Shown: piece by piece, positions 12,277 through 35,858 of the stretch
Layout of the letters: the number at the start of each line of letters is the position of its first letter
How positions within the stretch are numbered: the first letter of the stretch is position 1
Source: Candidatus Daviesbacteria bacterium
GTDB taxonomy: Bacteria > Patescibacteriota > Microgenomatia > Daviesbacterales > UBA10151
Length of the DNA: 64,000 bases
Direction of reading: 5' to 3'
Assembly (NCBI GenBank): GCA_016187025.1
Contig: JACPKM010000001.1
Location: forward strand, 43,188 to 107,187
Translations under genes and position numbers: made by a program
The notes under the pieces: generated by a model
Databases searched by the model: none
What the model saw: only the letters and a program-made list of their open reading frames with translations
Told to the model about the DNA's origin: nothing

Positions 12277-15200
12277 CTAACATGCAACATACTCATCCCA
12301 GCATTTGATATTAAGCTCATCTGCCTTTTTGCAAGATATAGCTAAAATAAACTCTGTTGCAGATTGTAAATTAGTCAAAAGCGGCACTCCTGTATCAATA
12401 CACACCCTTCTTATCACATATCCATCCCGCTGATCAGAGGCAGACTCTCCAGGAATACTAATGTTGATAGCCAAATCTACCCGGTTGTTACTAACTAAAT
12501 CTATTGCCGAAGGCGATCTGCCCTCAGATATTTTAAACACTCTAGTATTTTTAATCCCATGATCTTTGAGAAGTTGCGAGGTATTTTTGGTAGCATAGAT
12601 TTTTAAATTTAGCTTTGAGATTTCTTGTGCTGCTTCCAAAAACTCCATCTTATTTTTATCTCCTCCTATCGAAACAAATACCCCCTTTTGAGGAATCTTT
12701 CCACCAGTTGACAATATTGCTTTAAGAAAAGCTTCATGTAGATCTTCTCCAAAACAGCCCACTTCCCCAGTAGACAACATCTCCACCCGAAGCTTTGGAT
12801 CGGCTCCTTTTATCCTATTAAAGGAAAACTGAGACGCTTTTACTCCTACATAGTCTAAATTTAAAGTATTAAAGACACAATCTAGCCTATTACCTAAAAT
12901 TGCCTCAACTGCAATCTCCACAAAGTTATTTTTGGTTACTTTTGACACAAATGGGAAAGACCTGGAAGCCCTTAAATTAAGCTCAATTACCATCACTTTA
13001 TTGTCTTTTGCCAAAAATTGAATATTAAATGGCCCGGTAATATCCAGAGCCTTTATTATGGCTCTGGCATCATTTTTAACCTGCCTTATTGTTTCTATAA
13101 AAAGCCTTTGAGGTGGTAAAACCAAGGTTGCATCTCCTGAATGAACTCCGGCATTTTCTATATGCTCAGAAATAGCATAAATCACCAGCTCCCCGTTACT
13201 GGCAACTCCATCAATTTCAATTTCTTTTGCATTTTCTATAAATTTTGATATAACAACAGGGTATTTAGGAGAAACTTGTGTAGCTTGTGTTAAATACCTT
13301 TTAAGCTCCGGTACAGAGTAAGCTACATTCATCGCGCTTCCTGATAAAACATATGAAGGCCTCACCATTACCGGAAAGCCAATTTTTTTGGAAAAAGCAT
13401 GTGCCACCTCTGAGTTTTTTAACTCCTGCCAAGCAGGTTGTGAAATATTTAAGCTATCCAGTAATTTACTAAACTTGTGTCTATTTTCTGCAATATCAAT
13501 ACTAACTGGATCTGTTCCCAGAATTGGAACTTTTTTCTCATATAAAGGAATTGCTAGATTATTAGGAATTTGTCCACCAAAGCTCAAAACTATTTTTCCT
13601 CCTTCCAAATCATAAATATCCAATACTCTTTCCAAGGTAAGCTCTTCAAAATAAAGCTTGTCTGCATTATCATAATCTGTTGAAACCGTTTCAGGATTAC
13701 AGTTTATGATTATTGTTTCCCAGCCCTTTTTCTTAAAAGAAAGTGCTGCTGTTACACAACACCAGTCAAACTCTACTGATGATCCAATCCTATACGGCCC
13801 AGAACCTAATACGATTACCTTCCTTCTTTCCCCCTTTCCACTTTCCCCTTGTTCTGACTCCTCTCCATGGTAAGTTAAATACAAATAATTAGTTTTAGCA
13901 GGATATTCAGCTGCCAGTGTATCGATGTGCTTAACCTTTGGTAAAATAGCCCACCCTTTTCTTAACTGCCTTATATCTTGTTCATCTTTCTTAAATACCT
14001 GAGCAATCAAATTATCTGAAAAACCTAATTTTTTTGCCTGAAGAAGATTATGCTTACTGAGCTTAAGTTTTTTTTCTTTTAATCTCTTTTCAAAATTAAC
14101 AATTTCCAAAAGCTGATAAAGATACCACCTATCAACACCTGTTTCATTATAAATTTCATCAACTGAGGTGCCTTTGGCCAGTTCTCCTGCTACCGAAAAA
14201 ATTCTTTGTGTATTTGGAGAAAGTAACTTCTTAGAAGAAACATTTATTTTTGATTTTCCACCAAGCAGGCCATCCTGACCATTTCCCAAAGATCTTATGG
14301 CTTTTTGTAAGCTTTCAGGAAAGCTTCTACCTATGGCCATTACCTCCCCCACGCTTTTCATCTCAGATCCAATGGTCTCTGATGCTCCAACAAATTTTTG
14401 TAAATCCCACTTTGGCACTTTTACCACAATATAGTCCAAGCTTGGCTCAAAAAAGGCTGAGGTTGATTTAGTGACACTGTTTTTCAACTCAGAGAGTGTA
14501 TACCCCAGGCCAATTTTGGCAGCAACATATGCCAAAGGATAACCAGTAGCTTTTGATGCAAGAGCTGAGGAGCGCGAAAGCCTGGCATTCACCTCAATCA
14601 CTCTGTATTCATTGCTTTGGGGATTTAGAGCAAACTGGATATTACACTCTCCCACAATCTTTAGCTGTTCAATTACTTTCAAAGATATCTGCCGTAACAG
14701 ATGATATTGGTAGTTGTTTAAAGTTTGCGAAGGTGCAACTACAATACTCTCCCCTGTATGTATTCCCAATGGATCCAAGTTTTCCATATTACAAACAGTA
14801 ATCTTGTTACCCTCGCCATCCCTGACTATTTCGTATTCAATTTCCTTCCAATGTTTTAAATATTCCTCAATTGCGACCTGAGGTGCATGTTTTAAGGCTT
14901 TAGAGACCACCTGAGTTAACTCTTTTTGGTTGTAAACAACAGCTGAGCCCAATCCTCCCAAAGAGTACCCGGATCTAACTAAAAGAGGAAATTGTAAATT
15001 CTTAATAACTTCTAAGACCTCGTTTAGACTACTGGCAAAACCGCCTTTGGGGATCAAAACACCAATTTTTTCCAACTCCATGGCAAAAAGTTTTCTATCT
15101 TCAGTAATTTCGATGGTTTTTGCTGCTGTTCCTAAAACTTTGACATGGTTTTTTTCCAAAATACCTGATTTTGCCAAACTTAAACCACAATTAAGGGCAG

Positions 15201-15471
15201 TCTGGCCACCAAATGACAAGAAGATCCCATCGGGTTTTTCTTTTTTGATTACTTTTTCCACAAAGAAAGGATTGACCGGCAAAAAATAAACCTTATCTGC
15301 CAAAGATTGAGAGGTTTGGATTGTGGCAATATTAGGATTTATCAAAACTGTTTCAACGCTTTCTTCTTTTAAGGCCTTTAGTGCCTGAGAACCAGAGTAA
15401 TCAAACTCTCCTGCCTCCCCTATTTTCAGGGCCCCCGAGCCCAATACCAGTACTTTCCTCAATTTATTCAT
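12277..15471 (-). CDS. carB: carbamoyl-phosphate synthase large subunit
   Basis: 1064 aa with duplicated ATP-grasp halves and an MGS-like C-terminus. It contains the GESGKGE motif described in the findings. Confidence 0.95.
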   Translation of the reverse strand: MNKLRKVLVLGSGALKIGEAGEFDYSGSQALKALKEESVETVLINPNIATIQTSQSLADKVYFLPVNPFFVEKVIKKEKPDGIFLSFGGQTALNCGLSLAKSGILEKNHVKVLGTAAKTIEITEDRKLFAMELEKIGVLIPKGGFASSLNEVLEVIKNLQFPLLVRSGYSLGGLGSAVVYNQKELTQVVSKALKHAPQVAIEEYLKHWKEIEYEIVRDGEGNKITVCNMENLDPLGIHTGESIVVAPSQTLNNYQYHLLRQISLKVIEQLKIVGECNIQFALNPQSNEYRVIEVNARLSRSSALASKATGYPLAYVAAKIGLGYTLSELKNSVTKSTSAFFEPSLDYIVVKVPKWDLQKFVGASETIGSEMKSVGEVMAIGRSFPESLQKAIRSLGNGQDGLLGGKSKINVSSKKLLSPNTQRIFSVAGELAKGTSVDEIYNETGVDRWYLYQLLEIVNFEKRLKEKKLKLSKHNLLQAKKLGFSDNLIAQVFKKDEQDIRQLRKGWAILPKVKHIDTLAAEYPAKTNYLYLTYHGEESEQGESGKGERRKVIVLGSGPYRIGSSVEFDWCCVTAALSFKKKGWETIIINCNPETVSTDYDNADKLYFEELTLERVLDIYDLEGGKIVLSFGGQIPNNLAIPLYEKKVPILGTDPVSIDIAENRHKFSKLLDSLNISQPAWQELKNSEVAHAFSKKIGFPVMVRPSYVLSGSAMNVAYSVPELKRYLTQATQVSPKYPVVISKFIENAKEIEIDGVASNGELVIYAISEHIENAGVHSGDATLVLPPQRLFIETIRQVKNDARAIIKALDITGPFNIQFLAKDNKVMVIELNLRASRSFPFVSKVTKNNFVEIAVEAILGNRLDCVFNTLNLDYVGVKASQFSFNRIKGADPKLRVEMLSTGEVGCFGEDLHEAFLKAILSTGGKIPQKGVFVSIGGDKNKMEFLEAAQEISKLNLKIYATKNTSQLLKDHGIKNTRVFKISEGRSPSAIDLVSNNRVDLAINISIPGESASDQRDGYVIRRVCIDTGVPLLTNLQSATEFILAISCKKADELNIKCWDEYVAC

Positions 15472-15498
15472 AATTTAATATAAAATTACTCTTAGCTG

Positions 15499-16542
15499 CT
15501 AAAGATAAGTTAAAAATTCATCAAACAAATATCCCCCATCAGTTGGACCTGGGCTTGCTTCAGGATGAAACTGAACTGATAAGAATGGTTTTTTGACATG
15601 TCTTACCCCTTCATTTGTGCCATCATTTAAGTTTATAAACCATTCTTGCCAATTATTCGAAAGAGTTTTGCTACTGATGGCAAAACCATGATTTTGAGAG
15701 GTGATAATAGCCTTTTTTGAAATCAAATCTTTAACTGGCTGATTTTGGCCTCTATGACCAAATTTCAATTTATAGGTATCAGCCCCAGCTGCTAGTCCCA
15801 AAAGCTGACTTCCTAAACATATACCAAAAGTAGGAACATTCTCATCAATTAATTGCCTGATTGTATCAATTGTCTCTTTGGCTTGCTTTGGGTCTCCCGG
15901 ACCATTAGAAATCATGACCCCATCAAAGTTTAAGTTGTTTTTTATAGGGTTAAAGTTCCAGGGAACTACTGTTATTTTAACTTTTCTTTTTAAAAAGCTT
16001 TTTATGATATTTGATTTGGCTCCACAATCTATCAAAATAATATGTTTTTTTCCTTCCCCAAATGTTTGCGGTTTATCTACACTGACAAAAGGCAATACAT
16101 TTTCTTTATTCGGATCATAACTTTCCCCCTTTCCGCTTTCCCCTGACTCAATTCTTCCCAGCATCACTCCCCTTTCCCTTAATTTTCTTACCAAAAATCT
16201 GGTGTCAATATTAAAAAGCCCAGGAATATTATCTTTTTTTAGCCAATCACTTAAAGTTTTTTGACTTTCAAAATGAGATGGGGTGTCAATATAATTTTGT
16301 ACAATTACTCCCTTAACCTGAATTTTTTTAGATTCCCAATACTTTGTATCTGGAATTCCATAATTTCCCACTAAAGGATAAGTTAAAACAAGAATCTGAC
16401 CATAATAAGAAGGGTCGGTCAGGCTTTCCACATAACCCACCATTCCTGTGTTAAAAACCACCTCTCCGGAAATGTTTGTGATAGCCCCAAAAAAATCACC
16501 TTCAAATGTGTTTTGATCTGCTAGTATTAATTTACCTTTCAT
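15499..16542 (-). CDS. carA: carbamoyl-phosphate synthase small subunit (glutamine amidotransferase)
   Basis: CarA N-domain followed by a class I GATase (GICLGSQ...HRG...NHG). Confidence 0.9.
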   Translation of the reverse strand: MKGKLILADQNTFEGDFFGAITNISGEVVFNTGMVGYVESLTDPSYYGQILVLTYPLVGNYGIPDTKYWESKKIQVKGVIVQNYIDTPSHFESQKTLSDWLKKDNIPGLFNIDTRFLVRKLRERGVMLGRIESGESGKGESYDPNKENVLPFVSVDKPQTFGEGKKHIILIDCGAKSNIIKSFLKRKVKITVVPWNFNPIKNNLNFDGVMISNGPGDPKQAKETIDTIRQLIDENVPTFGICLGSQLLGLAAGADTYKLKFGHRGQNQPVKDLISKKAIITSQNHGFAISSKTLSNNWQEWFINLNDGTNEGVRHVKKPFLSVQFHPEASPGPTDGGYLFDEFLTYL

Positions 16543-16550
16543 AATTTTCC

Positions 16551-16576
16551 AAAAAAATACCGCCCCTAAGGCGGTC
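16551..16576 (-). terminator. intrinsic-terminator-like hairpin plus U7 tract, 9 nt upstream of the carA start codon
   Basis: Minus strand GACCGCC-UUAGG-GGCGGU followed by AUUUUUUUGG, then the carA ATG. This is attenuator-like architecture. Confidence 0.45.
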
Positions 16577-16633
16577 TTGCAATTACTTTATAACAAAACC
16601 AGTAATATATTTAAACATGAAATCAAGGGTGAT

Positions 16634-16736
16634 AATGAACTACCCTGCAGCAGAGCTGCGAGGTATCGCAAGCGAAAGTTCTTGTTACCAAGTTGTAACC
16701 GCGCAGTAAACTGCTCGGTATTATGTAACAATAAAG
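16634..16736. ncRNA. conserved structured RNA-like element, copy 1 (unassigned family)
   Basis: AATGAACTACCCTGCAGC...GTAACAATAAAG. It shares its ends, order and helices with 37196-37361. Compensatory changes are seen (UCGC/GCGA versus UCGU/ACGA; GUUAC/GUAAC versus GUUAC/GUGAC). Confidence 0.35.
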
Positions 16737-16794
16737 AAGAAGTACCATTCCGTCAACCCCTTAAATTGAAGGTTGTGTTAAAATATCAGATAGA

Positions 16795-17073
16795 ATGGCT
16801 AAAAATAAAGCAAAGGGGGGAAGCCAAAGTAAACGGTTCCATGAAGAGCTGATAGATAGAATGCTAGCCCTTGCAACCTCCGGTTTCGGACTTGTTGCAG
16901 CCCTTGCCTGGAATGAAACAATCCAGGCTTTTGTCCAGGATTATATCCAAAAATATTTCCCTCAATCATATGGTTTAATCTCAAAACTTTTATATGCCGT
17001 CTTAATAACTATTTTTGCTGTTTTTATTACCTACCAACTATCAAAACTTTCCGCCAAATTCAATAAACCGTAG
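16795..17073 (+). CDS. small membrane protein (hypothetical)
   Basis: 92 aa with two predicted TM segments and an RBS-like GGGGGAAG nearby. Confidence 0.3.
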   Translation: MAKNKAKGGSQSKRFHEELIDRMLALATSGFGLVAALAWNETIQAFVQDYIQKYFPQSYGLISKLLYAVLITIFAVFITYQLSKLSAKFNKP

Positions 17074-17086
17074 GTTATAAACTTAC

Positions 17087-18181
17087 TTAAATAATCTGTC
17101 CATTATCTACTTTTAAAATCCTGGCTGAATCTAAAAACTCTTGTGGGATATTTTCTAACTCCACTGTTGAGATAATTGTCTGCTGTCTTGAAACTATGCT
17201 TACAACATATGCCCGATGAGCAGCATCCAACTCTGAAAACACATCATCTAAAAGCAGGACCGGCCTTTTACCTAGTTTACCCGCCATAAACTCCAGCTGG
17301 GCTAGTTTGAAAGCTAGGGTGGCAGTTCTTTGCTCTCCCCGAGACCCGAAGTGGGATAAATGCCTGCCATTTAACTCCATACTATAATCATCACGGTGCG
17401 GTCCGATCAAAGTTGCTGCTGCAGCAATTTCTCTGCTTTGGCTACCAGCTAGTTTTTCTGAAGATATTTCTGACTTTTGATATTTAAAACCAAAATCCCC
17501 TAAAGGATCTTCTAAAGACCTGACAAACTCAAAAAAATCTTGTCTTTTGCTTTGTATAAGATATGCATTAGTTAATAAACCTTGTGTCCAATAGGCCAAC
17601 TCATCTGCCTTTCCTTCACCTTCTCTTATTTTTTTCAACACTCTATTTCTGGCTGTTAAAAACTGCTCATATAAACTCAGAGCTCTCTTATACTCACTAT
17701 CAACTTGGGCCAAAGACACATCTAAATGCCATCTTCGCAGTGAGGGGCTACCTGTGACCATTTCAATATCTGATGGATAAAAAATCACGGCTGGTAGATT
17801 ACCCACAAAATCAACAACTCTTCTGGGTATACCATTTACCAAAACTTTCTTTTTAAACTCTTCCTGACCCTTTTGTTGGCGATTTAATACAATTACTAAC
17901 TCTGTCTTGTCATTTTCTCTATCTTCTAAGCTTGCTTCTACTCTTGAAAAGGGCTCAGCTTCCCTAATCAACTCATATTCTATTTCTACTCTTGTTGATT
18001 TGGTTGTTGATAAAAAATAGATAGCTTCTAAAACATTAGACTTTCCGGCAGCATTGTTTCCCAGCAGAACAGTTGTACGGTTATCAAAGTCTAAATTAAG
18101 CTGAGAGTAGTTTCTAAAATTGGTTAAGTGGAGGCTTTTTAAAAACATGAGAAATAATGCTATTTTTGGCACGTCGGACAA
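17087..18181 (-). CDS. recF: DNA replication and repair protein RecF
   Basis: Walker A GNNAAGKSNVLEA and the SMC-like signature LLLDDVFSELD. The real start is probably the internal MFLKSLHL. Confidence 0.8.
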   Translation of the reverse strand: MSDVPKIALFLMFLKSLHLTNFRNYSQLNLDFDNRTTVLLGNNAAGKSNVLEAIYFLSTTKSTRVEIEYELIREAEPFSRVEASLEDRENDKTELVIVLNRQQKGQEEFKKKVLVNGIPRRVVDFVGNLPAVIFYPSDIEMVTGSPSLRRWHLDVSLAQVDSEYKRALSLYEQFLTARNRVLKKIREGEGKADELAYWTQGLLTNAYLIQSKRQDFFEFVRSLEDPLGDFGFKYQKSEISSEKLAGSQSREIAAAATLIGPHRDDYSMELNGRHLSHFGSRGEQRTATLAFKLAQLEFMAGKLGKRPVLLLDDVFSELDAAHRAYVVSIVSRQQTIISTVELENIPQEFLDSARILKVDNGQII

Positions 18182-19029
18182 AAATATGTCCCCCTACCAC
18201 CTAACTGAATCTTTTCAATATTAGTTTTGCATTTTTCACAAGGATGACCATCTAGTCCGTAAACATAGGCATAATCTAAAAAATAGCCTTTCTGGCCCTC
18301 AGCATCCACAAAATGGGCTCTGGTTGACCCACCATATCTTATTCCCTCCTCCAAAGACTTTATTATCCCTTTATACAGAGCTTTGAACTGTTCATCAGAT
18401 AATTTAGAAACCTTTGTTCTGGGGTCAACTTTGGCATCAAAGCAAGCTTCATTGGCATAGATATTACCTACTCCAGCCACCACTTGAGGATCCATGATGG
18501 CTACTTTAACAGGCATGCTCTTGTGTTTTAACAGATTCTGTTTTAAAAGTTGCCAGTTAAACCCTTTTTCCAATGGTTCCGGCCCCAAGTTTTTCATAAA
18601 CTTTACACTTTGCACTTTGAACTTTTCACTTACTCTAACCCACCCAAATCTTCTTTGGTCGTTAAAATATAAGTGGGAACCATCACTAAAACTAAAGATT
18701 ACTCTGGTATGACTATTTGGCATTTGATCCCTCATATCAGGAGTTGGATGCCCGCCTATAAAACTTTCCCCTTGACCCTTTCCGCTTTCCCCTTTCCAAA
18801 TCAATTGTCCTGTCATCTTAAGATGAAATAATAAAGTGATATCACTACTTAAATCTATACCTAGAAATTTAGCTCTTCTCCAAATATTGAGCACTTTTTG
18901 ACCCTCTGCCTGATTTGGATTTCCAGTGAAAGATTTTGGGGAAAGTATTTGAATTTTTTTGATTGTTAAACCAATAATTTTCTTTTGCAACCCTAATTTT
19001 ATTGTCTCTACTTCGGGTAACTCCGGCAT
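18160..19029 (-). CDS. mutM: formamidopyrimidine-DNA glycosylase (Fpg/MutM)
   Basis: N-terminal MPELPEVE and a C-terminal zinc finger CEKC...CPTCQ. It carries about 19 extra residues including GESGKGQGES. Confidence 0.9.
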   Translation of the reverse strand: MPELPEVETIKLGLQKKIIGLTIKKIQILSPKSFTGNPNQAEGQKVLNIWRRAKFLGIDLSSDITLLFHLKMTGQLIWKGESGKGQGESFIGGHPTPDMRDQMPNSHTRVIFSFSDGSHLYFNDQRRFGWVRVSEKFKVQSVKFMKNLGPEPLEKGFNWQLLKQNLLKHKSMPVKVAIMDPQVVAGVGNIYANEACFDAKVDPRTKVSKLSDEQFKALYKGIIKSLEEGIRYGGSTRAHFVDAEGQKGYFLDYAYVYGLDGHPCEKCKTNIEKIQLGGRGTYFCPTCQK

Positions 19030-19042
19030 GAGAAGTATTTTA

Positions 19043-20026: not shown

Positions 20027-20035
20027 TTACAAATA

Positions 20036-22439: not shown

Positions 22440-23273
22440 ATGCATATTGTTAAAAAGCTTTTAATTGCTCCGGTTTTTCTAATACTGCTTGCTATAACTT
22501 TTTATCTGTTTAATCCTTATTTAAGCTCATTTGATAAGTTATTTACCTTTGGGCTGGAGTCTTTTGTTGAACTGGCAATCCTAACGTTATTTCTGACTCT
22601 CGCCTGCTTAAGTTCTATCCTGTTTGCAGCTTTATCTTTTGACTGGAGGTATGTTTTTCCAATTAGCGTAGCTGGTGGTTTAGTTCCTTTTTTGATTATT
22701 CCATCTTCTGTGGGAGTTATTCTTGGTGCTGGAATTTTTGTAGCTTTGATTATTACAAATTTAGTACTAGAAAACAGACTAAAGGCTTATATAGATTTTC
22801 ACCCTTCTGCTCTGCTAACACCATCTGTTAAACAGCTGTCCAGTTTGATTATTCTGGCTCTAGCTTTTTCTTTCTATCTATCAACAACCAGTTCTATCTC
22901 CCAAAAAGGCTTTGAGATTCCTGACTCACTGATAAATAGCTCATTGAACTTAATGCCACAAAACAGCTTTTCCAATACTGAAGATAATCTGTCCAACTCT
23001 TCAGATCTTACTCAAACTCTTCTTAAAAAAACAATCAAGGAGCAATTCAAGACTATGCTTGATCCTTACTTGGGCATTATTCCCCTGGTTCTGGCAGCAC
23101 TATTTTTTGTCAGCTTACACTCAATAGCTTCACTTTTATTTATACTTTTTCCTTCACTTATTTTTATAATTTTTTATCTTCTGGAAAAAAGTAACTTTAT
23201 CAGATTCGAAAAAGAGATGCGGGAGGTCAAAAAATTAGTGATTTCATCTCTCCCCAATTCTTCCCCACCTTAA
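22440..23273 (+). CDS. polytopic membrane protein (hypothetical)
   Basis: 277 aa with multiple hydrophobic segments. Confidence 0.3.
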   Translation: MHIVKKLLIAPVFLILLAITFYLFNPYLSSFDKLFTFGLESFVELAILTLFLTLACLSSILFAALSFDWRYVFPISVAGGLVPFLIIPSSVGVILGAGIFVALIITNLVLENRLKAYIDFHPSALLTPSVKQLSSLIILALAFSFYLSTTSSISQKGFEIPDSLINSSLNLMPQNSFSNTEDNLSNSSDLTQTLLKKTIKEQFKTMLDPYLGIIPLVLAALFFVSLHSIASLLFILFPSLIFIIFYLLEKSNFIRFEKEMREVKKLVISSLPNSSPP

Positions 23274-25380
23274 GATCAACAATCACTGGCACGGAAAGGG
23301 TTAAGGCATTTTCCATTTTGTCCTTGACCATTTTGGCAGTCTCTTTAACAAATTTTGGATTACATTCAAACAAAAGTTCATCGTGTATTTGCAGAATCAT
23401 ACAGCAATTTTGAGTTTTGAGTTTTGAATTTTGAATTTCTTCGTCTATTTCCACCATCGCCTTTTTAATCATGTCAGCGCTAGTACCCTGAATAGGATGG
23501 TTTACTGCTGCCCTTTCCCCAAAAGCTTTTAACATTCGGTTGGATGCCTGAAGCTCCGGTATATACCTTTTTCTACCCCAAATAGTCTCAACAAACCCAT
23601 TTTTATAGCCTTGCTCTAAAACCTGGCCCATCCATTCTTTTACTTTAGGAAACTTTGCAAAGTACTCATCTATGTAGGTTTTGGCTGTCTGGTAATCTAT
23701 ACCCAATTGTTGAGACAGCGCATGGGCTCCTTGCCCATAAAGGGTGGCAAAGTTCATGGTTTTACCCACATTTCTTTGCTCTCTTGTTACCTGATCAACT
23801 GGAACTTTAAAGATTTTTGAGGCTGTTAGAGTATGAATATCTATGCCTTCTTGAAATGCTATTTTAAGGTTTGGGTCATCGGATAAATGGGCTAAAATCC
23901 TAAGCTCAACTTGAGAATAATCAGCTTTTAGTAAAACTTTTCCTTTGGGAGCAATAAAAACCTTTCTAATTTCCCCGCCTAATTGTCCTCTGATAGGAAT
24001 GTTTTGTAAATTCGGGTCTTGGGAAGAAAGCCTACCTGTGGCAGCCCCTTCTACATTGAAAGTGGAATGAATTCTACCATCCTCCTTAACATATTTTGGC
24101 AAAGCATCAATATAGGTTGATATTAGCTTAAACAACTGACGATACTGCAGTAGTAACGGAATCACAGGATGGGCTGCGGAAAGCTCCCTTAAAGTCCCCT
24201 CATCTGTAGACCTACCGGTTTTGGTTTTTCTTACAACAGGCAATTTCAGCTCATCAAATAAAACCTCAGATAACTGTTTTGGGCTATTTAAGTTAAATTG
24301 GTGGCCAATTTTGGCATAAATTTCCTCTTCTATTAAACTTAGTTGTTTTTTTAGCTCGTTACCCATTTTATTTAAAAGCTTTAGATCAATTAATACTCCA
24401 TTTTCAGACATCTTTTCCAAAACTGGCTGAACAGCCAGATCAAGGTCAGTGGTAGTAGAGGAAGTATAAGTTAAGATTTCAGGATTATTGGTTTTTAACT
24501 CCGCATCCTGAGGACCTGGTAGACGGGCAATCAAACTTTTAAATTGTAGTTCTTCAAATAGTTTAACAGCTTCTTCATGATTGTAGTCATAAACCCGGCA
24601 TTTGGCTAAATCTAACTTAATAGGCGCTCCTTGCTCGATAGTTGCCAGCTCTTTGCTCATCACAGCAGATTCAGCGCCTTCTGATAAAAGTAATTGTATT
24701 CTTTGAGGTAGTGTTTTTAAATTTTCCGGGCGGTAGATTTTTTCTATAGTTTCAAATTGTAAAATAAGTTTTGTAGCAGAAACCTCTCCTATCCCTCCTA
24801 CACCGGGAATATTATCTGATGCATCACCTGCCAGAGCTTTATAGTCAACTAAATTTTTCGGCATAAAGCCAAACCTTGCCACAAATTCTTCTTCCCCATA
24901 AAGCCCTACATCTTGTAAAGTCTTTTTTGGCATTAACACTTTTACTCTCTTACCAATAAGCTGCATAATATCCCGGTCTCCTGTAACTACAATTACTTCC
25001 AGGTTTTTTTCTTTTTCTCCTGCTTGTTTTACCAAAGTCCCAATTAAATCATCTGCTTCGTACCCAGCAAGGCTAAACTCAGGAATATTTAAGGTATGCA
25101 CTACCTCATGCACTCTTTTGTATTGGGAGGATAAACCATCATCTGCCGGTCCTCTGGTAGATTTATATTGGGTATAGGACTGATGGCGAAAAGTAGGCCC
25201 TTTTTCATCCCAGGCAACTGCAATAAAATCAGGTGTCAGCTCGTTTATGGAACGCAAAAGCATTGAGCAAAACCCATAAACTGCATTAACCAGCTCCCCG
25301 TTTGAGGTAGTAAGAGGCGGGGTGGCATGGTAGGCCCGGTGAAGTAGGGCATTTCCATCTACTAAACATAACCTTTTCAT
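23227..25380 (-). CDS. polA: DNA polymerase I (5'-3' exonuclease plus polymerase; short form)
   Basis: N-terminal LVDGNALLHRAYHA; polymerase motifs DYSQVELR and QIHDELLFE. At 717 aa it appears to lack most of the 3'-5' exonuclease domain. Confidence 0.9.
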   Translation of the reverse strand: MKRLCLVDGNALLHRAYHATPPLTTSNGELVNAVYGFCSMLLRSINELTPDFIAVAWDEKGPTFRHQSYTQYKSTRGPADDGLSSQYKRVHEVVHTLNIPEFSLAGYEADDLIGTLVKQAGEKEKNLEVIVVTGDRDIMQLIGKRVKVLMPKKTLQDVGLYGEEEFVARFGFMPKNLVDYKALAGDASDNIPGVGGIGEVSATKLILQFETIEKIYRPENLKTLPQRIQLLLSEGAESAVMSKELATIEQGAPIKLDLAKCRVYDYNHEEAVKLFEELQFKSLIARLPGPQDAELKTNNPEILTYTSSTTTDLDLAVQPVLEKMSENGVLIDLKLLNKMGNELKKQLSLIEEEIYAKIGHQFNLNSPKQLSEVLFDELKLPVVRKTKTGRSTDEGTLRELSAAHPVIPLLLQYRQLFKLISTYIDALPKYVKEDGRIHSTFNVEGAATGRLSSQDPNLQNIPIRGQLGGEIRKVFIAPKGKVLLKADYSQVELRILAHLSDDPNLKIAFQEGIDIHTLTASKIFKVPVDQVTREQRNVGKTMNFATLYGQGAHALSQQLGIDYQTAKTYIDEYFAKFPKVKEWMGQVLEQGYKNGFVETIWGRKRYIPELQASNRMLKAFGERAAVNHPIQGTSADMIKKAMVEIDEEIQNSKLKTQNCCMILQIHDELLFECNPKFVKETAKMVKDKMENALTLSVPVIVDLKVGKNWGEMKSLIF
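23405..23439. repeat. heptamer tandem repeat (TTTTGAG x 2, TTTTGAA x 2) inside polA
   Basis: caattttgagttttgagttttgaattttgaatttc; encodes IQNSKLKTQN. Confidence 0.7.
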
Positions 25381-29502: not shown

Positions 29503-29731
29503 CTGAGTATCTGAAATCTTCCTGAATCTCTTTAATAATCTCTACTTGCGCCATAGCGCTTTTACGAAGCTGGTCCTTTAAATCTGTCTTGGCCAACTTA
29601 TCTTTAACAGCTTCAGCAATAAACTTACTTCTTTTTTTAGCCGGGACTGCTCTTTTAAAATCCCTGGCCAGCTCGTATGGTAAGGTAATATTTAATCTTT
29701 GTGCTTGCATAATTATTTCTCCAATACACAC
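29474..29731 (-). CDS. putative RHH/CopG-like antitoxin
   Basis: 85 aa, immediately upstream of the MazF-like gene and overlapping it. It begins RLNITLPYELARDF. Confidence 0.5.
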   Translation of the reverse strand: MCIGEIIMQAQRLNITLPYELARDFKRAVPAKKRSKFIAEAVKDKLAKTDLKDQLRKSAMAQVEIIKEIQEDFRYSDAEVDSRIP

Positions 29732-29964
29732 TAATTATACACACATTTGATTGGAATAATCAAGTAATCCTCATTCTTGTTTCCTCCCCATCCATAACCA
29801 GATTTGATTAGAGAAAAACTCGAACAGAACTCTGACTAATGAAAGCTCTAGAAGAAGGCGAAGAATGAAACTTGTTCATTTTTGCACTGCCTACTTATGA
29901 AGGATTGTAATAGAAATTTTCGGAAAAACCAAGAAGCAAAACACCAAAATTACCAAAAACCCAA

Positions 29965-30716
29965 TTACTTAGTTTCAAATGCCGCTACCAGGCGCGGAGA
30001 ACCAACATCGTCATTACCAGAGTCACGAGGCCAGCCATGGACTCCCAGACCGCGATCAGGGTCGGCACTGCCTACAACGGCAACGAAGGAGCCAGATTCA
30101 TTGGTTGGATTTTTCGTTCTTCCATATACCCAATTTCTACCTTGAACTTCTGCATATTTTGGTCCAAATAACCATTCACCCGGATGATTAGCTAAATGTT
30201 GAAAGGTTAATTCTGTAAAAACAACTGCTTGACCTGGAACAATTTGTGTTATTCCTGTCAAGCCGTACCTTTCAGCATCAGCCGCTGCCATTGTCTCTTG
30301 TGTATCCGTATCTCTACCGAGAGTACCAGGAACAAAAAAATCTTCAGGTTTTGCAAAATAAGCTACTTCAATTCGTGGTGAAGGCACAGTAAGCAGTCTT
30401 GTACTATTTCCTGCATCAACAATGTGCCAGAAGGCGGGCAATCCTTGTGCTTCTCTGACCTTTTTCTGATGCTCAATAGTTTCTCCAGTTAATGTACAAA
30501 AGGAAGCACCAAAATTTTTTAGGGCTGCTTCTCTCTGTCAGGAATTCTTGCTTTTAAAATAAGTCGTTCTGCGCCCCTTGCTTCTGTAGAAATTCCTGCT
30601 GCTAAAACTCGTCCACCATCAAGCCATTGATCAAGCATCCCCACCTGTGGATCATTGGGATGTAACCTTGCAAATTCATTTCTATGTGCTCGTAATATCT
30701 CAATACCTTCCATCAT
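29965..30716 (-). pseudogene. frameshifted gene remnant in a locally GC-elevated segment (function unknown)
   Basis: Two collinear minus-strand ORFs (30716..30519 and 30441..29965) in different frames. GC is clearly above flanking DNA. Confidence 0.35.
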
Positions 30717-30917
30717 AATCAGTGAATAGTATCAGATTATAGGACAGTTGTCAAACAAAATCAAAACACAAAAGACCTTACTCCTTAAAAAGGTTAACAG
30801 CCAGAGTAAAACCCAGTTTTTCATACCAGTTATCAGCAGAGAAGATAATTTTAGTACCACTTTTTTGGAAGTCAGGTACCAAAATAATCGCCTTTTTTAA
30901 TTAACTCCTTCATGCAA

Positions 30918-31913
30918 TTAAAAGTAGTCTAATTTCATAGCTTTTTTAACTTCTGCCAAAGTTTTTTGGGCCTTTATCCTGGCTTTTTCAGTTCCTTCTT
31001 TTAAGATTCTATCTACCAGCTCAGGCCGATTTTCGTATTCAGCCCGTTTCTTTCGGATAGGATCCAGGAAATTATTTAAAACTTGCACCAGGTACTTTTT
31101 AACCTCGATATCACCAACTTGGCCTTTTGAGTAAAGTAGTTTGTAGTTGGTAGTTTGTAGTTTGTCGCTTTCAGAAGCAAATGCATCCAAATAGATAAAT
31201 ACAGGATTTCCTTCCACATGTCCTGGGTCAGTTGCTCTAATTCTTGTAGGATCTGTATACATACTCATGACCTTTTTTCCCACCTCATCAGCAGAATCAG
31301 TTAAAAAGATAGCATTGCCTAAGGATTTGCCCATTTTGGCCTGTCCATCAGTCCCAGGAAGAGTAGGTACCTCCCCTATTAAGGGCTCTGGTATAGGAAA
31401 GACGTCTCCATAAAGATTATTAAACTTAATAGCAATATCCCGGGCATATTCCACATGAGCCTTTTGATCTTTACCAACTGGTACTAAATTAGCTTTAGGA
31501 AGTAATATATCAGCAGCCATAAGCACAGGGTAATAAAATAAACCCACAGTATCTTCTGAGCCCTGGTCAAGTTTTTCTTTTAAAGCAGGCTGCCTGGCTA
31601 TTAGAGGCCTAGGAGTCAAAACACTTAAGAAATAGGCTAGCTCCAAAACTTCCGGCACTTTAGATTGAACAAAAAAAGTCACTTTTTCAGGGTCCAGCCC
31701 CACAGAAAGGTACCCTAACATTAAACCGCGGATATTTTTTTTCAGCTGGTCAGTACGGTCAAAGTGAGTTGTGAGTGCATGTAAATCCACCAAAGGAATA
31801 AACATCTCATACTCCAGTTGCAGCTTTACCCTATTTTTAAGCGATCCTATATAGTTTCCCAAATGGAAACTATCATAGGTGGGTCTATCTCCTGTGAGAA
31901 TTCTCTTTTTCAT
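30918..31913 (-). CDS. trpS: tryptophan--tRNA ligase
   Basis: TGDRPTYDSFHLGNYIG (HIGH region) and KMGKSLGN (KMSKS). Confidence 0.9.
   Translation of the reverse strand: MKKRILTGDRPTYDSFHLGNYIGSLKNRVKLQLEYEMFIPLVDLHALTTHFDRTDQLKKNIRGLMLGYLSVGLDPEKVTFFVQSKVPEVLELAYFLSVLTPRPLIARQPALKEKLDQGSEDTVGLFYYPVLMAADILLPKANLVPVGKDQKAHVEYARDIAIKFNNLYGDVFPIPEPLIGEVPTLPGTDGQAKMGKSLGNAIFLTDSADEVGKKVMSMYTDPTRIRATDPGHVEGNPVFIYLDAFASESDKLQTTNYKLLYSKGQVGDIEVKKYLVQVLNNFLDPIRKKRAEYENRPELVDRILKEGTEKARIKAQKTLAEVKKAMKLDYF
31136..31168. repeat. heptamer tandem repeat (TAGTTTG-like x 4) inside trpS
   Basis: gtagtttgtagttggtagtttgtagtttgtcgc. Confidence 0.7.
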
Positions 31914-32002
31914 AGTCTTTTTCCTAGTTTACCATATTACACATATTGAGCCGGTCGGCACAAAGTGCGTTAAACTAAGTTAGTAGAACACATCTGTTAT
32001 CT

Positions 32003-32386
32003 TTAATCCTCTTGAGGAAGATAGATATCTAAAACCCCAGCCCTACCTGCCATAAGCGATTTTAAAGAAACAGATATTTCGTATCCCTCATGCAGATCTA
32101 CTAAAACCACCTCTCCTTTTTTTACCGGTATCGCGCTCGCATTATCTACCTGATCACCTTCAAATGTTCTAATCTGCTTTATTCGATAAAATAGAGGCTC
32201 TGGATCAAGAAGAACTCCACTATGTTCTCTAGTTATATTAGCTTGCACCACTTCACCTGGCCTTGGACAAAATCTTTCCCGTAACCTTAGTGCACTGGGA
32301 TTTCGTACCTCAGGCAAAGACCGGTTATTTCCCTTTCTTTGTTCTGGGGAAATCCTATGTATTAGTTGTTCATAATCTGCAGTCAT
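32003..32386 (-). CDS. hypothetical protein
   Basis: 127 aa with an SD-like GGAAGGA upstream; no family recognised. Confidence 0.3.
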   Translation of the reverse strand: MTADYEQLIHRISPEQRKGNNRSLPEVRNPSALRLRERFCPRPGEVVQANITREHSGVLLDPEPLFYRIKQIRTFEGDQVDNASAIPVKKGEVVLVDLHEGYEISVSLKSLMAGRAGVLDIYLPQED

Positions 32387-32400
32387 ATTTTTCCTTCCAT

Positions 32401-32426
32401 AAAAAAACCGCCTGCTAAAGGCGGTT
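32401..32426 (-). terminator. intrinsic terminator hairpin plus U7, just before the start of the 32003..32386 gene
   Basis: Minus strand GGAACCGCC-UUUAGCA-GGCGGUUUUUUUAUGG. Confidence 0.4.
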
Positions 32427-32605
32427 CCTGGGTGTTTGAAATTCCTTTTTATAAGGAAATCTGCACACTAGGACCGCTCTCGTAAATAATGAGAGAACGG
32501 CGCCAAGTAAATTTTTTAAAGTTTTTTAACATATCTTTTATAATTAAACAGATTCAGCGTACTTGTCAATAGTGATTTTACTATGGGGCTCAACTAAAGT
32601 CAAGT

Positions 32606-33349
32606 TTACTTTAATCGACGGGGTAAAACTCCGTCATATTCTATTTCTTCATTTGGAACTCTTCTGAATGGTTTTTCGCGGACCCACTCTTCAAAGATAT
32701 GGGCAATGAGTCCCACCACCCTGCCGATTATGAAAAAACCCTTTCCCAGTCTATAATCAAAACCCATATCAGATACAACTGCTGCAATTGCCCCGTCTAC
32801 ATTGATAGGGATTTTTTTGCCTTTAAGTCTTTCCAGCTCTGCTTCAACTGCAACTGCCAATTCACAATGTTCACCAAAAAACCCAAGTGTTTTGGCTTTT
32901 TCAAAAACTTGCTTGGCTCTTGGGTCTTCTGTATATACTTTGTGTCCAAAACCGGGAATCCTATCTCCTGAGGATATCACCTTTTCCACCAATTTTGAGG
33001 CTGCAAGACCCATTTGTAAAAGATGCGCACACTCCTCAACCGCCCCGCCGTGATATTCCCCTATTCCTAAAACCCCGGCAGCCACAGCAGCCTGCATGGG
33101 ATTACCTGCTGAAGCAGAGTTTCTGGCGTTTGTCACAGAAGGCGGACCCATGCCGTTATCGATAGTGGAGATTAAAATGCTATCAAGCATTGCTCTTTCT
33201 TTTTCTGTCGGCAGCTCCCCTTTTAATTCCAGCCAGATAGCATCGGTAAAATTTACATTATCTATTAAATCAGTGATTTTGTAGCCGTGGATGTGTACTT
33301 CCCCATCCACAATCCCAGATATTGATGTCTTCCACTTTTTGTCAGACAT
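32606..33349 (-). CDS. citryl-CoA lyase-like protein (citrate synthase C-terminal-domain homolog)
   Basis: From MSDKKW: citrate-synthase catalytic region with GFGHKVY and the D...Vxxx motifs, but only about 247 aa because the CS N-terminal half is missing. The ORF-track start at 33454 is probably spurious. Confidence 0.55.
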   Translation of the reverse strand: MSDKKWKTSISGIVDGEVHIHGYKITDLIDNVNFTDAIWLELKGELPTEKERAMLDSILISTIDNGMGPPSVTNARNSASAGNPMQAAVAAGVLGIGEYHGGAVEECAHLLQMGLAASKLVEKVISSGDRIPGFGHKVYTEDPRAKQVFEKAKTLGFFGEHCELAVAVEAELERLKGKKIPINVDGAIAAVVSDMGFDYRLGKGFFIIGRVVGLIAHIFEEWVREKPFRRVPNEEIEYDGVLPRRLK

Positions 33350-33393
33350 AGTGACAGGTACAGTAAAGGTGACAAGTGACAAGAAATAAAAAT

Positions 33394-33417
33394 AACTTGT
33401 TACTTGTGCCTTGTTAC
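33394..33417. repeat. direct repeat A flanking the four-helix-bundle gene
   Basis: AACTTGTTACTTGTGCCTTGTTAC. Its partner, AACTTGTTACTTGTCACTTGTGCCTTAT, is at 33791-33818. An imperfect long hairpin, GGTGACAAGTGACAAG...CTTGTTACTTGT, lies at 33368-33408. Confidence 0.6.
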
Positions 33418-33420
33418 TAG

Positions 33421-33807
33421 TCACCCTCCTTTCTGAGAAATGTATAGCTTCCAAATTATATGACCTGTTTCAGCTCTTAGCAAGGAGATCTCTTGGAAGT
33501 CTCTATCTGCTACCAATTTTCTTTTATAAGCAAAGTCCAGTAAGTATTCTGTTTCCGCAAGAGAGCCTAACGCTATAGACAGAAACCTATGAAATTCTTT
33601 CTTACTATTCCTTGCGTGACCTTCAACTATATTCGTGGGAACCGATAAACACGCTCTTTGCAGTTGGGAGACTAAGCCAAATATCTCGTTCTTAGGAAAA
33701 GTAAGAGTTAAATCGTATACTTTGTGCACTAGTTCATCAGCTTTTTGCCATGCGATTAGCTTCTTGTAGCCGAACAACGAACTGTTTTCTAACTTGTTAC
33801 TTGTCAC
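33421..33807 (-). CDS. four-helix-bundle protein (23S rRNA intervening-sequence protein family)
   Basis: YKKLIAWQKA...SQLQRACLSVPTNIVEG...FLSIALGSLAETEYLL is typical of PF05635/TIGR02436. Confidence 0.7.
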   Translation of the reverse strand: MTSNKLENSSLFGYKKLIAWQKADELVHKVYDLTLTFPKNEIFGLVSQLQRACLSVPTNIVEGHARNSKKEFHRFLSIALGSLAETEYLLDFAYKRKLVADRDFQEISLLRAETGHIIWKLYISQKGG

Positions 33808-33818
33808 TTGTGCCTTAT
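33791..33818. repeat. direct repeat B flanking the four-helix-bundle gene
   Basis: AACTTGTTACTTGTCACTTGTGCCTTAT; partner of 33394-33417 with one extra CACTTGT heptamer. Confidence 0.6.
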
Positions 33819-34702
33819 CACCTTATCAGTACTGGTATCTCATCCGGAGTCTTGGCAATTTCCACTCCGGCCTCTTTTAAGCTATTAATTTTAGATTTAT
33901 AGCTGCCCTTTTCTCCGTAAACTATTGCCCCTGCATGCCCAAGTTTTGTGCCTTGAGGTAAGTTTTCGGCAAATAGTCCAGAAATAAACGCCACCACTTT
34001 TTTAGTAAACCCTCCACTTTTTATTAATTCTGCTGCTTCTTCCTCATAAGTCCCACCAATTTCTCCAAAGATTACAACAGCTTTTGTTTGTTCATCTTTT
34101 TCAAATTCTTTTAACAAATCTACAAAGGTTGAACCTACTAATATATCCCCGCCAATTCCCACAACGGTCGACTGGCCAATACCGTTTTTTGTTAGAATCC
34201 ATGATACTTCTGAGGCCATCCCTCCTGATTTGGAGATTACTCCAACAGATCCCTTCGAATAAACTCCCCTCGGATCATCACCCCCTATTGAGCCTACTTT
34301 ACCAATACCCGGAGAAATAATACCGATAGATGACGGACCAACCATTTTAACCCCATTTTGCTTGGCTAAAGCAATTGCTTTTGCACTATCTTGAACAGGA
34401 ATATGTTCTGTTAAAACATTTATTAAAGGAATTTTGTTTTTTATGGCTTCTTCCATGGCCCCAAATGCAGCAAAATTTGGGACAGCTATGAAAGAGGTAG
34501 TAATCCCCGGGTGATTTTCTAATGCCTCTGTAATAGAGTTATAAACAGGTACCCCATGCACTTCCTGTCCCCCTTTACCAGGAGTCACACCAGCCAACAC
34601 TTTAGTACCGTAATTTCGCATCTGCAAAGCCACCTTGGACCCTTCTTTGCCTGTTATGCCCTGTATTAAAACTTTAGTTTTATCAGTAACTAGTATTGCC
34701 AT
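33818..34702 (-). CDS. succinyl-CoA synthetase alpha-like / citryl-CoA synthetase small subunit-like (CoA-binding)
   Basis: SucD-type CoA-binding and ligase-CoA domains (VLIQGITGKEGS...; GHAGAIV). Confidence 0.8.
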   Translation of the reverse strand: MAILVTDKTKVLIQGITGKEGSKVALQMRNYGTKVLAGVTPGKGGQEVHGVPVYNSITEALENHPGITTSFIAVPNFAAFGAMEEAIKNKIPLINVLTEHIPVQDSAKAIALAKQNGVKMVGPSSIGIISPGIGKVGSIGGDDPRGVYSKGSVGVISKSGGMASEVSWILTKNGIGQSTVVGIGGDILVGSTFVDLLKEFEKDEQTKAVVIFGEIGGTYEEEAAELIKSGGFTKKVVAFISGLFAENLPQGTKLGHAGAIVYGEKGSYKSKINSLKEAGVEIAKTPDEIPVLIR

Positions 34703-35858
34703 AAGCTAGATCCACCATTGTTTTTGCTGTAGCTGTCATTGGGGTTTCCCGCCCATATATATGAAAATCAAAACCTTCTTTTTCTCCAATCTCTTTTAAA
34801 GCCTCAAAGGCTTCCTTATCCCTTGGCCCTCCCCTCCTGATTACAATTGGATAATTTGGTTTAGGACTCAGTTCCCTTAAACCTTCTACAAATCCCATCA
34901 GGGTTTCAAAAATATCCGTAAAGTTGGCTGTCCCCCCTACAAACCAGCAGCCCTTTAAGTTAGGTTTAGAAAGTACTATTTTTGTTAATCTTTCTAGTTT
35001 CTCTCTGGGAGGATTTCCTGAGTGTTCAGTATAGTTTGCGCTCTTGCCGCCATATGCTACAAGCGCATCCATATTCACAATAGATCCTCCCCCTCCTGCT
35101 GCAATCACTGCAATATCTCCCTCCAAATCCCAATAAACAGAGCCTGCAGTACCACGGTGATCCCCTTCATCTATTTTCCGGGCTTCAATTTCTGCCTCAG
35201 TTGGAGCCCTGCCAAACAAATTCCTTTCAGGAAATTTAATCTCGCGTCTAAAATCAGCATCATCATCCAAAATTATTTTGGCGTCCAACGCCATAATATA
35301 ATTTTGCCCTGAGCGAGCGGAGCGAGTCGAAGGGTTCTTAGCGACTACCAACGGATTAATTTCTGCCAGTTCACAGTCATATTTGGTAAAAACTTCCCAA
35401 AGTTTTTTTGCTGTGCCTTTCAACTCCTCAGGAACATTTTCTCCTAAATATCCCTTTAAGATATCGACCTGGAAAGTTTTCACCTCTTTACCCTCTACTC
35501 CTGTACCTCCTTCACCAAAATTCAAAACCGGTCCTCTTGATTCTGTGGAATAAGAGAATGACAAGTAGTATTCCCTATCATAATCTACCATCTCCTCTAC
35601 TAAAACCTTATCTACTTTTTCTCCATTAACAATCCTGCCAAACAGTTTTTCTACTTCCCCCTTCACGCTTTCCCCTTCACCCTTAACTGTAACTATTCCA
35701 CCTACATCTGCACGCTTACCGGACAAAACCTGGACTTTTAAAACACAGGGTCCTTTAATAGTAACTTCTTCATCCGCCAAAGTTACTAGCTGTGACTGAG
35801 GAACATTTATTCCACAATTTTTAAAAAGTTGTTTTCCTTCAAATTCGTATAAGATCAC
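34683..35858 (-). CDS. succinyl-CoA synthetase beta-like / citryl-CoA synthetase large subunit-like (ATP-grasp)
   Basis: N-terminus MILYEFEGKQLFKNCGINVP resembles SucC/AclB ATP-grasp proteins. It carries the GEGESVKGE motif. Confidence 0.75.
   Translation of the reverse strand: MILYEFEGKQLFKNCGINVPQSQLVTLADEEVTIKGPCVLKVQVLSGKRADVGGIVTVKGEGESVKGEVEKLFGRIVNGEKVDKVLVEEMVDYDREYYLSFSYSTESRGPVLNFGEGGTGVEGKEVKTFQVDILKGYLGENVPEELKGTAKKLWEVFTKYDCELAEINPLVVAKNPSTRSARSGQNYIMALDAKIILDDDADFRREIKFPERNLFGRAPTEAEIEARKIDEGDHRGTAGSVYWDLEGDIAVIAAGGGGSIVNMDALVAYGGKSANYTEHSGNPPREKLERLTKIVLSKPNLKGCWFVGGTANFTDIFETLMGFVEGLRELSPKPNYPIVIRRGGPRDKEAFEALKEIGEKEGFDFHIYGRETPMTATAKTMVDLAYGNTSY

Follow-up and report, generated by a model that had tools for sequence, protein, structure and literature searches.

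The window analysed here, a 64-kb stretch of a Candidatus Daviesbacteria genome, contains four copies of the G-rich motif CCCCCTTTCCRCTTTCCCC, which fall in the genes of both carbamoyl-phosphate synthase subunits (carB and carA), of a formamidopyrimidine-DNA glycosylase (fpg) and of a protein resembling citryl-CoA synthetase. A pattern search allowing up to two mismatches places the four on the plus strand, two of them exact (13830-13848 and 16125-16143) and two with two mismatches (18774-18792 and 35657-35675). Only 0.02 copies are expected by chance, and none of 100 shuffles gave four. Chance is thereby ruled out as their cause, as the preliminary description of this DNA had maintained. That description had placed the first copy at 13820-13838, 10 nucleotides from its true position, and had called the 19-mers near-identical; this is correct for the two exact copies, while the third and fourth share with them a core of 17-18 nt.

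All four copies belong to minus-strand open reading frames (ORFs), of which the G-rich text is the sense strand and the plus-strand copy the antisense. They are read in one common frame, GGG GAA AGY G(G/T)N AAG GGN, which gives the peptide G-E-S-(G/V)-K-G-E; orientation, frame and peptides had all been described properly. Read on the sense strand, carA and carB have the same 23-mer, GGGGAAAGYGGAAAGGGGGAAAG, whereas fpg has GGGGAAAGCGGAAAGGGTCAAGGGGAAAG and the fourth gene GGGGAAAGCGTGAAGGGGGAAG. The same minority codons are used in every copy, namely GGG (21% of Gly), AGY (28% of Ser) and AAG (28% of Lys), and we calculate the probability of such a coincidence at about 4.5e-4 per copy under the observed codon usage. 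The identity therefore lies at the level of the DNA and not of the peptide.

The motif is a heptanucleotide tandem array, composed of the unit GGGGAAA with fixed imperfections, and its general sense-strand form is GGGGAAA GYGGAAA GGG(G/T)NAAA G. In this register the fpg array reads GGGGAAA GCGGAAA GGGTCAA GGGGAAA G, and the carA and carB arrays read GGGGAAA GYGGAAA GGGGGAAA G, their common 23-mer including an irregular unit of 8 nt. Tandem Repeats Finder (TRF) calls all four copies at period 7, with 3.0 copies and 75% matches in carA and carB, 4.9 copies and 77% matches in fpg, and 4.4 copies and 70% matches in the fourth array, which is also called at period 14 with 88% matches. The four arrays (23-34 nt) are direct repeats only, with no inverted-repeat or hairpin structure and no outstanding fold.

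The carB array is located in the linker preceding the second ATP-grasp half, the carA array at the junction of the N-terminal and glutaminase domains, and the fpg array at the tip of a beta-hairpin. Compared with homologues in the PDB, all copies fall in unaligned or variable segments, so that the earlier view of a motif tolerated in frame within variable loops and linkers stands. The idea of a mini-insert is borne out only in part, and three of the four copies replace an existing loop. The carA copy adds one residue relative to human CPS1, the carB copy adds four relative to a solved homologue, and the citryl-CoA-synthetase-like copy leaves the length unchanged relative to PDB 6hxq. In Fpg, the region is indeed longer by about 19 residues than in Bacillus stearothermophilus MutM, as had been stated for the insertion holding the motif, but only about six of these residues belong to the motif and the rest (GGHPTxDM...) is common to all relatives. 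In the AlphaFold2 model of Fpg (mean predicted local distance difference test, pLDDT, of 75), residues 80-88 form a loop between the strands 74-79 and 89-91, and the pLDDT is below 50 at residues 84-86.

The genes carB, carA and fpg had been correctly named, while the one first labelled sucC-like best matches the large subunit of citryl-CoA synthetase and ATP-citrate lyase beta. The closest homologues of Fpg, CarA and the CoA-ligase-like protein all come from Candidatus Daviesbacteria (Microgenomates, candidate phyla radiation, CPR) and, apart from the source metagenome-assembled genome, reach at most about 80% identity. The carB and carA products (12277-16542) score 1134 and 320 bits against human mitochondrial CPS1, and 832 and 263 bits against E. 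coli CarB and CarA.

The period of 7 extends far beyond the four copies. In the window, TRF assigns it to 15 of 35 rows, and 13 non-redundant period-7 arrays are found, compared with 1.8 in local shuffles. Among relatives, sampled as 86 loci around Fpg orthologues (~890 kb, some duplicates included), there are 174 unique arrays of period 7 and 42 of period 14, and the neighbouring periods 6, 8 and 9 give 9, 36 and 66, respectively. A self-identity lag scan of these loci, which is independent of TRF, yields 99 segments at lag 7, 33 at lag 14 and at most 8 elsewhere; applied to 50 kb of E. coli, the scan yields no period-7 segment. As many as 155 of the 174 arrays (89%) are inside ORFs of at least 90 aa, which comprise 93% of the bases, and the depletion from ORFs that is a trait of known heptanucleotide repeats is not seen in these loci. 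The other 19 arrays are in non-ORF sequence (~59 kb), and non-coding arrays are more often longer than coding ones. The array length has its mode at 30-34 nt, i.e., about 4.3-4.9 units, in all unit families and not in the G-rich one alone.

The 174 arrays comprise 102 exact consensus units. There is no avoidance of units with a stop triplet, which make up 53 of 111 units compared with 48 of 111 random 7-mers. Where such arrays were inspected, the unit falling in frame carries a single substitution, for example TGA to GGA in IDNGQL and TAG to GAG in NSSEFIV. The motif is one unit family among many unrelated period-7 units, rather than the sequence-specific element or binding site that had been proposed at first.

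At orthologous sites, arrays of differing units are found while the length of the segment is kept. The Fpg hairpin contains, across orthologues, either a four-residue turn (DDGK) or a period-7 array, such as GESGKGKGE (GGGGAAA), GNRQQAVGN (GGCARYA), PNDKRLTINDK (AACGATW), PSEKRIASSEK (AGCGAAA) and others. The interdomain linker of Fpg, which has the same length as in B. stearothermophilus MutM, shows lag 7 as its best self-similarity lag in 47 of 64 unique orthologues, and its lag-7 identity is at least 0.7 in 26 of the 64, compared with 4 of 4176 control windows in the same genes. The linker unit changes with the lineage (AATTGAC, AATTGAA, AGTTGAC, AGTGCAA, AAGTAAC, GGGGAAA and others). At the site of the fourth copy, 120 homologues display KGEGESVKGEVEKLF, DRQQAVGNSLKQLF, DNGQLTIDNLKTLF and NSSELIVNSLK..., and related or other arrays also occur in relatives at the site of the perfect (TTCAAAG)x4.9 array (locus L113) and at that of the DNA polymerase I-like ORF. 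Peptides such as IDNGQLTIDN, KFKVQSAK and RQQAVGN recur at orthologous loops, and the same peptide vocabulary is met in the carA loop, the carB linker, the DNA polymerase I-like ORF, the 591-aa ORF 8150-9925 and a glycosyltransferase of family 4 (GT4). Since orthologues carry other heptamer arrays at the same positions, a sequence-specific role of the motif at these sites is not upheld.

The GGGGAAA-type arrays of relatives are always on the sense strand and are also read in the other two frames, as in RGKGEGERGK and KGKREGKKGKGE. The element is thus not bound to one frame, however constant the frame is in the window, and the earlier statement that the motif always encodes GESGKG is valid only within the window. 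The motif peptide is kept in about 30 of 120 Fpg homologues and about 18 of 120 citryl-CoA-synthetase-like homologues. The 17-mer core (up to two mismatches) occurs outside fpg only once in the ~890 kb of relatives. A scan of 185,579 species genomes (one per species) for the 19-mer gave 30 hits, each a single one and in taxa that are unrelated and for the most part GC-rich; a few of these hits are inside longer (GNGGAAA)n arrays (L004, L022 and L029).

Two further observations were made on these sequences. The 19-mer GGGGAAAGCGGAAAGGGGG is found in flanks that are conserved within each of several groups of unrelated Deltaproteobacteria and Nitrospira (L013, L030 and L031; L011 and L021; L024 and L028), where it may be part of a conserved non-coding element. 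A second kind of in-frame mini-insert, GC-rich and palindromic-looking by eye, occurs in the same loops of relatives and encodes peptides such as DSRLRGNDK...VIPNLIGN, VILSEAKDL, PSTSLRAR, LPAGRQ and IPAKAGI. It was seen in the Fpg linker (L098 and L103), in the carA loop (L084), at L043, L063 and L088, and in the proteins P0204, P0196, P0333, P0254 and P0326; in P0204 it is nested within a GGGGAAA array.

The conservation of the array at the codon level is evident from 14-15 unique Fpg orthologues having the GGGGAAA array (mean amino-acid identity of 70%). In the array columns the modal codon is used in 0.91-0.92 of the sequences, the value varying with the set of orthologues, compared with 0.63 elsewhere, and the array has the highest modal-codon use of 192 sliding windows. 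Neighbour- or context-dependent codon bias was tested as a cause and does not explain these conserved codons. In 11-13 lineages the array has retained two imperfections, AGC and the synonymous GGT. Between close strain pairs there are 0 differences in 694 array positions, compared with 0.92% outside the arrays.

We favour, with a probability of about 0.6, the reading that heptamer arrays fill structurally tolerant loops and linkers of conserved Candidatus Daviesbacteria proteins, GGGGAAA being one family of them, and that slippage or conversion acting in steps of 7 nt gives rise to them, with selection letting through those that keep an open frame in a tolerant loop. The anatomy of period 7, the excess of arrays, their place in ORFs and loops, the exchange of units at orthologous sites and the conservation of codons are observed; the mechanism and the reason for the 7-nt register are what we infer from this pattern. 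Replication or repair synthesis would realign out of register by one 7-nt unit, and in a short stretch a unit would be overwritten by its neighbour (intra-array conversion), or units would be added. As 7 leaves a remainder of 1 on division by 3, successive units are read in different frames, and selection would retain those outcomes in which the frame is preserved, no stop is in frame, the peptide is hydrophilic and the location is a loop. An all-purine unit on the sense strand encodes only G, E, K or R in any frame (plus S in the present family), and the GGGGAAA family would therefore be well tolerated and always be found on that strand. Homogenisation would remove single changes, and now and then a variant would sweep the whole array and change its unit. 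Such homogenisation would explain both why synonymous sites are conserved and why the unit changes in concert from one lineage to another.

A number of observations weigh against slippage and conversion in register. No gain, loss or change of a unit was found between strain pairs of 96-99.9% identity, which are a small sample, and no intermediate or polymorphic state was seen, so that ongoing slippage is not demonstrated. The kept AGC and GGT imperfections would be expected to be erased by simple homogenisation. The density of arrays seems higher in coding loops than in intergenic DNA, which a purely neutral mutational bias does not predict. Steps of a single unit would frameshift essential genes, and the path from one to ~4.5 units is unexplained. 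Finally, the 23-mer common to carA and carB, with its irregular 8-nt unit, looks more like copying than independent slippage. The lack of intermediates, the frameshift problem, the kept imperfections and the shared irregular unit keep alive two other explanations, namely a copy-and-paste origin and a function that depends on the periodicity.

In the copy-and-paste alternative, which we consider doubtful, ready-made stop-free arrays of ~20-35 nt would be copied between loci of one genome, either through template switching or through ectopic gene conversion over short patches. The four copies of the motif would then be paralogous to one another at the DNA level, and the element would behave like a tiny mobile insert. 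Those in carA and carB, which agree even in the Y of position 9 and the irregularity of the third unit, are only 2.3 kb apart, with the fpg copy 2.6 kb beyond, and the motif is absent from 13 of 13 carA loops read in related loci, GGGGAAA-type loop peptides being present in only ~5 of 120 carA homologues. Arrays at different sites share their unit in 4.3% of cases versus 1.5% for random 7-mers (2.8 times), sharing is more frequent within one locus than across loci (10.1% versus 4.2%, Fisher p = 0.007), and stop-containing unit families reappear with the same fix at many sites. All of this is in line with copying, as is the scatter of the Fpg array carriers on a neighbour-joining tree, but this tree is star-like and weakly resolved and does not discriminate between single and multiple origin. 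On the other hand, no similarity outside the array, no target duplication and no terminal inverted repeats are found, most arrays replace a segment of equal length instead of being inserted, and the graded series of units differing by single bases at one site (AATTGAC, AATTGAA, AGTTGAC, ...) fits change in place.

A bolder proposal, which we regard as unlikely, is that Daviesbacteria, and perhaps other CPR, possess an active process in 7-nt register that would write and homogenise ~32-nt arrays specifically in transcribed or translated loop-coding DNA. It would be a generator of loop diversity in essential proteins, and array families would spread between loci as the smallest known mobile coding cassettes.

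Less probable still is a functional nucleic-acid element, in which the G-rich sense tract would act in the DNA or mRNA and be conserved for that reason. The candidate roles are a two-tetrad G-quadruplex (G4) of r/d(GGGGAAAGCGGAAAGGGGGAAAG), a protein site with one heptamer per monomer (a cold-shock-type oligonucleotide-binding fold) and an anti-Shine-Dalgarno-like pause site at domain boundaries. The conservation of the synonymous sites of the Fpg array far above the gene background and the invariance of the arrays between close strains would agree with such a function, as would the presence of every copy on the sense strand and of the carA and carB copies at domain junctions. The four-unit preference of the G4-forming GGGNATC repeats (PMC4692102) and the binding of CspB to heptamer repeats (PMC4679880) point in the same direction. 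However, orthologues have unrelated, G-poor units at the same positions, and no sequence-specific role is conserved there. All four copies exceed the G4Hunter threshold (1.64-1.80), and to this extent the initial suggestion of a G-quadruplex-prone tract is justified, but so do 13 regions on that strand, and no G4 appears in the minimum-energy fold when ViennaRNA is run with G-quadruplex terms. The G-tracts are GGGG, GG and GGG(GG), with an additional GGGG in fpg only, and do not amount to four tracts of at least three G. With the second tract limited to GG and G-poor arrays behaving alike, we consider the case for a G4 role to be weak. As for the pause site, GAAAGGGGG would pair with the canonical anti-Shine-Dalgarno sequence with one G-U pair (the host's 16S rRNA is not in the window), but few genes of the window have a GGAGG-type Shine-Dalgarno sequence and most have none. 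The octamer GGGGAAAG is not enriched after removal of the arrays (4 versus 2.3 expected).

We find it very improbable that the motif is a peptide-level one, i.e., that G-E-S-G-K-G-E is selected as a flexible charged linker or DNA-contacting loop with the DNA identity being secondary. The peptide does recur in four proteins, is retained in the homologues noted above and is placed in exposed loops; this reading is nevertheless rejected in view of the common minority codons and the related arrays that give other peptides in other frames, while orthologues with unrelated peptides or a four-residue turn and the low pLDDT at the tip of the Fpg loop also speak against it.

A skewed genomic signal, such as a DNA uptake sequence or a polar octamer similar to Chi or the FtsK-orienting polar sequences (KOPS) (GGGGAAAG / GGAAAGGG) that happens to fall in genes, is hardly credible: GGGGAAAG occurs 11 times on the minus strand, which is G-rich throughout the window, and once on the plus strand, but 7 of the 11 are within the four arrays and the other 4 are unremarkable, many octamers have an equal or higher observed/expected ratio, 81% of the coding bases are on the minus strand, and the core is almost absent from relatives outside fpg. 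Two other candidates were rejected. An internal translation start driven by a Shine-Dalgarno-like tract fails, as the sole ATG nearby, in carA, is not in frame and starts an ORF of 13 codons and most genes lack a Shine-Dalgarno sequence, and a -1 frameshift slippery site (G GGA AAG) fails because the heptamer is in the wrong codon phase.

Table 1. Period-7 arrays of the window and the genes that host the G-rich motif.
Feature	Position	Strand	Remarks
GGGGAAA-family array in carB	13826..13848	-	GGGGAAA GTGGAAA GGGGGAAA G; GESGKGER, aa 542-549 of 1064
GGGGAAA-family array in carA	16121..16143	-	GGGGAAA GCGGAAA GGGGGAAA G; GESGKGES, aa 134-141 of 347
GGGGAAA-family array in fpg	18764..18797	-	GGAAA GGGGAAA GCGGAAA GGGTCAA GGGGAAA G; WKGESGKGQGES, aa 78-89 of 289
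Degenerate GGGGAAA-family array (period 7/14) in the citryl-CoA-synthetase-like (acetate-CoA ligase family) gene	35654..35684	-	KGEGESVKGEV, aa 59-69 of 391
Second period-7 array of fpg, unit AAAGTKC, interdomain linker	18600..18631	-	encodes VSEKFKVQSVKF
Perfect (TTCAAAG)x4.9 array in ORF 8150-9925	8397..8430	-	encodes IKVQSSKFKVQR
Period-7 array, AAATTTA-like, in ORF 8150-9925 (591 aa)	9561..9592	-	NLKFKIKTFKL
Period-7 array, AAAWTCA, in the DNA polymerase I-like ORF 23227-25380	23406..23438	-	encodes EIQNSKLKTQNC
Period-7 array, CAAACTA, in ORF 30918-31913	31136..31165	-	DKLQTTNYKLL
Two short adjoining period-7 arrays (GTGACAA, AACAAGT family) near the start of ORF 32606-33454	33369..33418	-	
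Period-7/14 array (AACAAGT family) where ORFs 33421-33807 and 33818-34702 meet	33792..33821	-	
Short intergenic period-7 array (CTACAAC x3)	12227..12247		
carB, carbamoyl-phosphate synthase large subunit	12277..15471	-	host gene
carA, carbamoyl-phosphate synthase small subunit	15499..16542	-	host gene
fpg/mutM, formamidopyrimidine-DNA glycosylase	18160..19029	-	host gene
Citryl-CoA synthetase large-subunit-like / ATP-citrate-lyase-beta-like gene	34683..35858	-	host gene

The window has a number of other features. An identical intergenic direct repeat of 67 nt, AAAAAATTCTGCAATTAAATCAACGATTTAATTGGGTGTATTATGTCTTGCAGTCCCCGCAACACA, is present at 39493-39559 and 42058-42124, 2.6 kb apart, and a 19-nt repeat, TGCGGGAAATATGACAAAA, at 12252-12270 (intergenic, downstream of carB) and at 42470-42488, where it spans the start codon of the ORF 42125-42478. 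Two paralogous non-coding elements, one just upstream of carA on the minus strand (~16633-16740) and one at ~37222-37365 with two extra blocks of ~30 nt laid out like inserted hairpins, may be structured RNA; neither has an Rfam match above noise. In the Rfam search of the window, two tRNAs alone reach the gathering score. A sub-threshold group I intron match at 36770-36997 on the plus strand (26 bits versus a gathering score of 50, E = 3.8e-4) is found in a 1.7-kb stretch without any ORF of at least 100 aa, adjoining tRNA-Met. Many start codons are preceded at ~5-10 nt by a TATAAT-like hexamer, which together with the scarcity of Shine-Dalgarno sequences suggests, as judged from the sequence, leaderless or very short-leader mRNAs. 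The GC skew is negative on the plus strand over almost all of the window (1-64000), which, with the predominance of minus-strand coding, is consistent with a single replichore having the minus strand as leading strand.

The tandem heptanucleotide repeats of Calothrix, the STRR sequences (short tandemly repeated repetitive sequences), belong to a class with which the present arrays can be compared. Heptanucleotide simple sequence repeats are over-represented in many bacteria according to an earlier study, which PMC4692102 refers to and PMC4679880 summarises; the latter also reports that study's proposal that 7 nt corresponds to the stretch of DNA in contact with the polymerase. The known cases, which are the repeats of Calothrix, GGGNATC in Xanthomonas and Nostoc, and TAACTGA in Beggiatoaceae, are described as mainly intergenic (PMC4679880, PMC4692102). 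The present arrays resemble this class in their head-to-tail 7-nt units in few copies, in the excess of period 7 far above its neighbours and in the presence of several unit families per genome. Genes are expected to lose repeats whose unit is not divisible by three, since every gain or loss of a unit shifts the frame, and to hold triplet-multiple units instead; here, in contrast, 89% of the arrays are in ORFs, in frame, and occupy loops of essential enzymes. They are also capped at ~4.5 units, their unit differs between orthologues, and no variation in copy number was seen in the small sample of strain pairs.

The GGGNATC / GGGGAYT repeats of Xanthomonas and Nostoc (PMC4692102) are likewise G-rich heptamers that are transcribed and prefer about four units, but in our case one tract is only GG, no G4 is predicted, and G-poor arrays have the same length preference. 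In marine Beggiatoaceae and cyanobacteria, the heptamer TAACTGA forms direct repeats of two to six copies at many loci of a genome (PMC4679880), and there as here the coding potential restricts where they can be placed. The repeats of Beggiatoaceae differ in having a single favoured unit, mostly upstream of start codons and in a forward orientation that contains stops, whereas ~100 unit variants are found here within genes, with the in-frame stops removed by point substitution in the arrays inspected.

Rickettsia palindromic elements are in-frame selfish DNA in protein-coding genes, ~100-150 bp in length, palindromic and true insertions. The likeness is that a bacterium with a reduced genome carries dispersed repeats which its conserved proteins tolerate in frame where they are exposed at the surface; the present arrays are, however, 20-35 nt direct repeats without inverted arms, which often replace a loop at unchanged length. 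The in-ORF repeat units of Borgs are reportedly divisible by three and rapidly evolving, in contrast to the 7-nt unit of the present arrays and their stability among close strains. What the two have in common is that nucleotide tandem repeats in ORFs make new flexible protein segments, which in Borg proteins are disordered regions (PMC9879509).

Period-7 arrays are thus the normal content of variable loops in CarA, CarB, Fpg and the DNA polymerase I-, GT4 glycosyltransferase- and citryl-CoA-synthetase-like ORFs of these bacteria, which accounts for recurrent odd CPR peptides such as GESGKGE, IDNGQLTIDN, KFKVQS and RQQAVGN. Annotators and alignment methods should be aware that such peptide likeness between unrelated proteins is not homology. 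The arrays offer a natural system for studying mutational mechanisms, rather than protein selection, as shapers of loop sequence, and a concrete test case for the old idea of 7 nt as a slippage register determined by the polymerase. Our literature searches gave no report of heptamer arrays in CPR or of their pervasive in-frame use, and the pervasive in-frame heptamers in CPR housekeeping genes appear to be new, the unit size and the preference for about four units being already known. What sets them apart from the known class is that they lie in frame in loops encoded by essential genes, that their units turn over between orthologues at one site and that they are stable in the short term.

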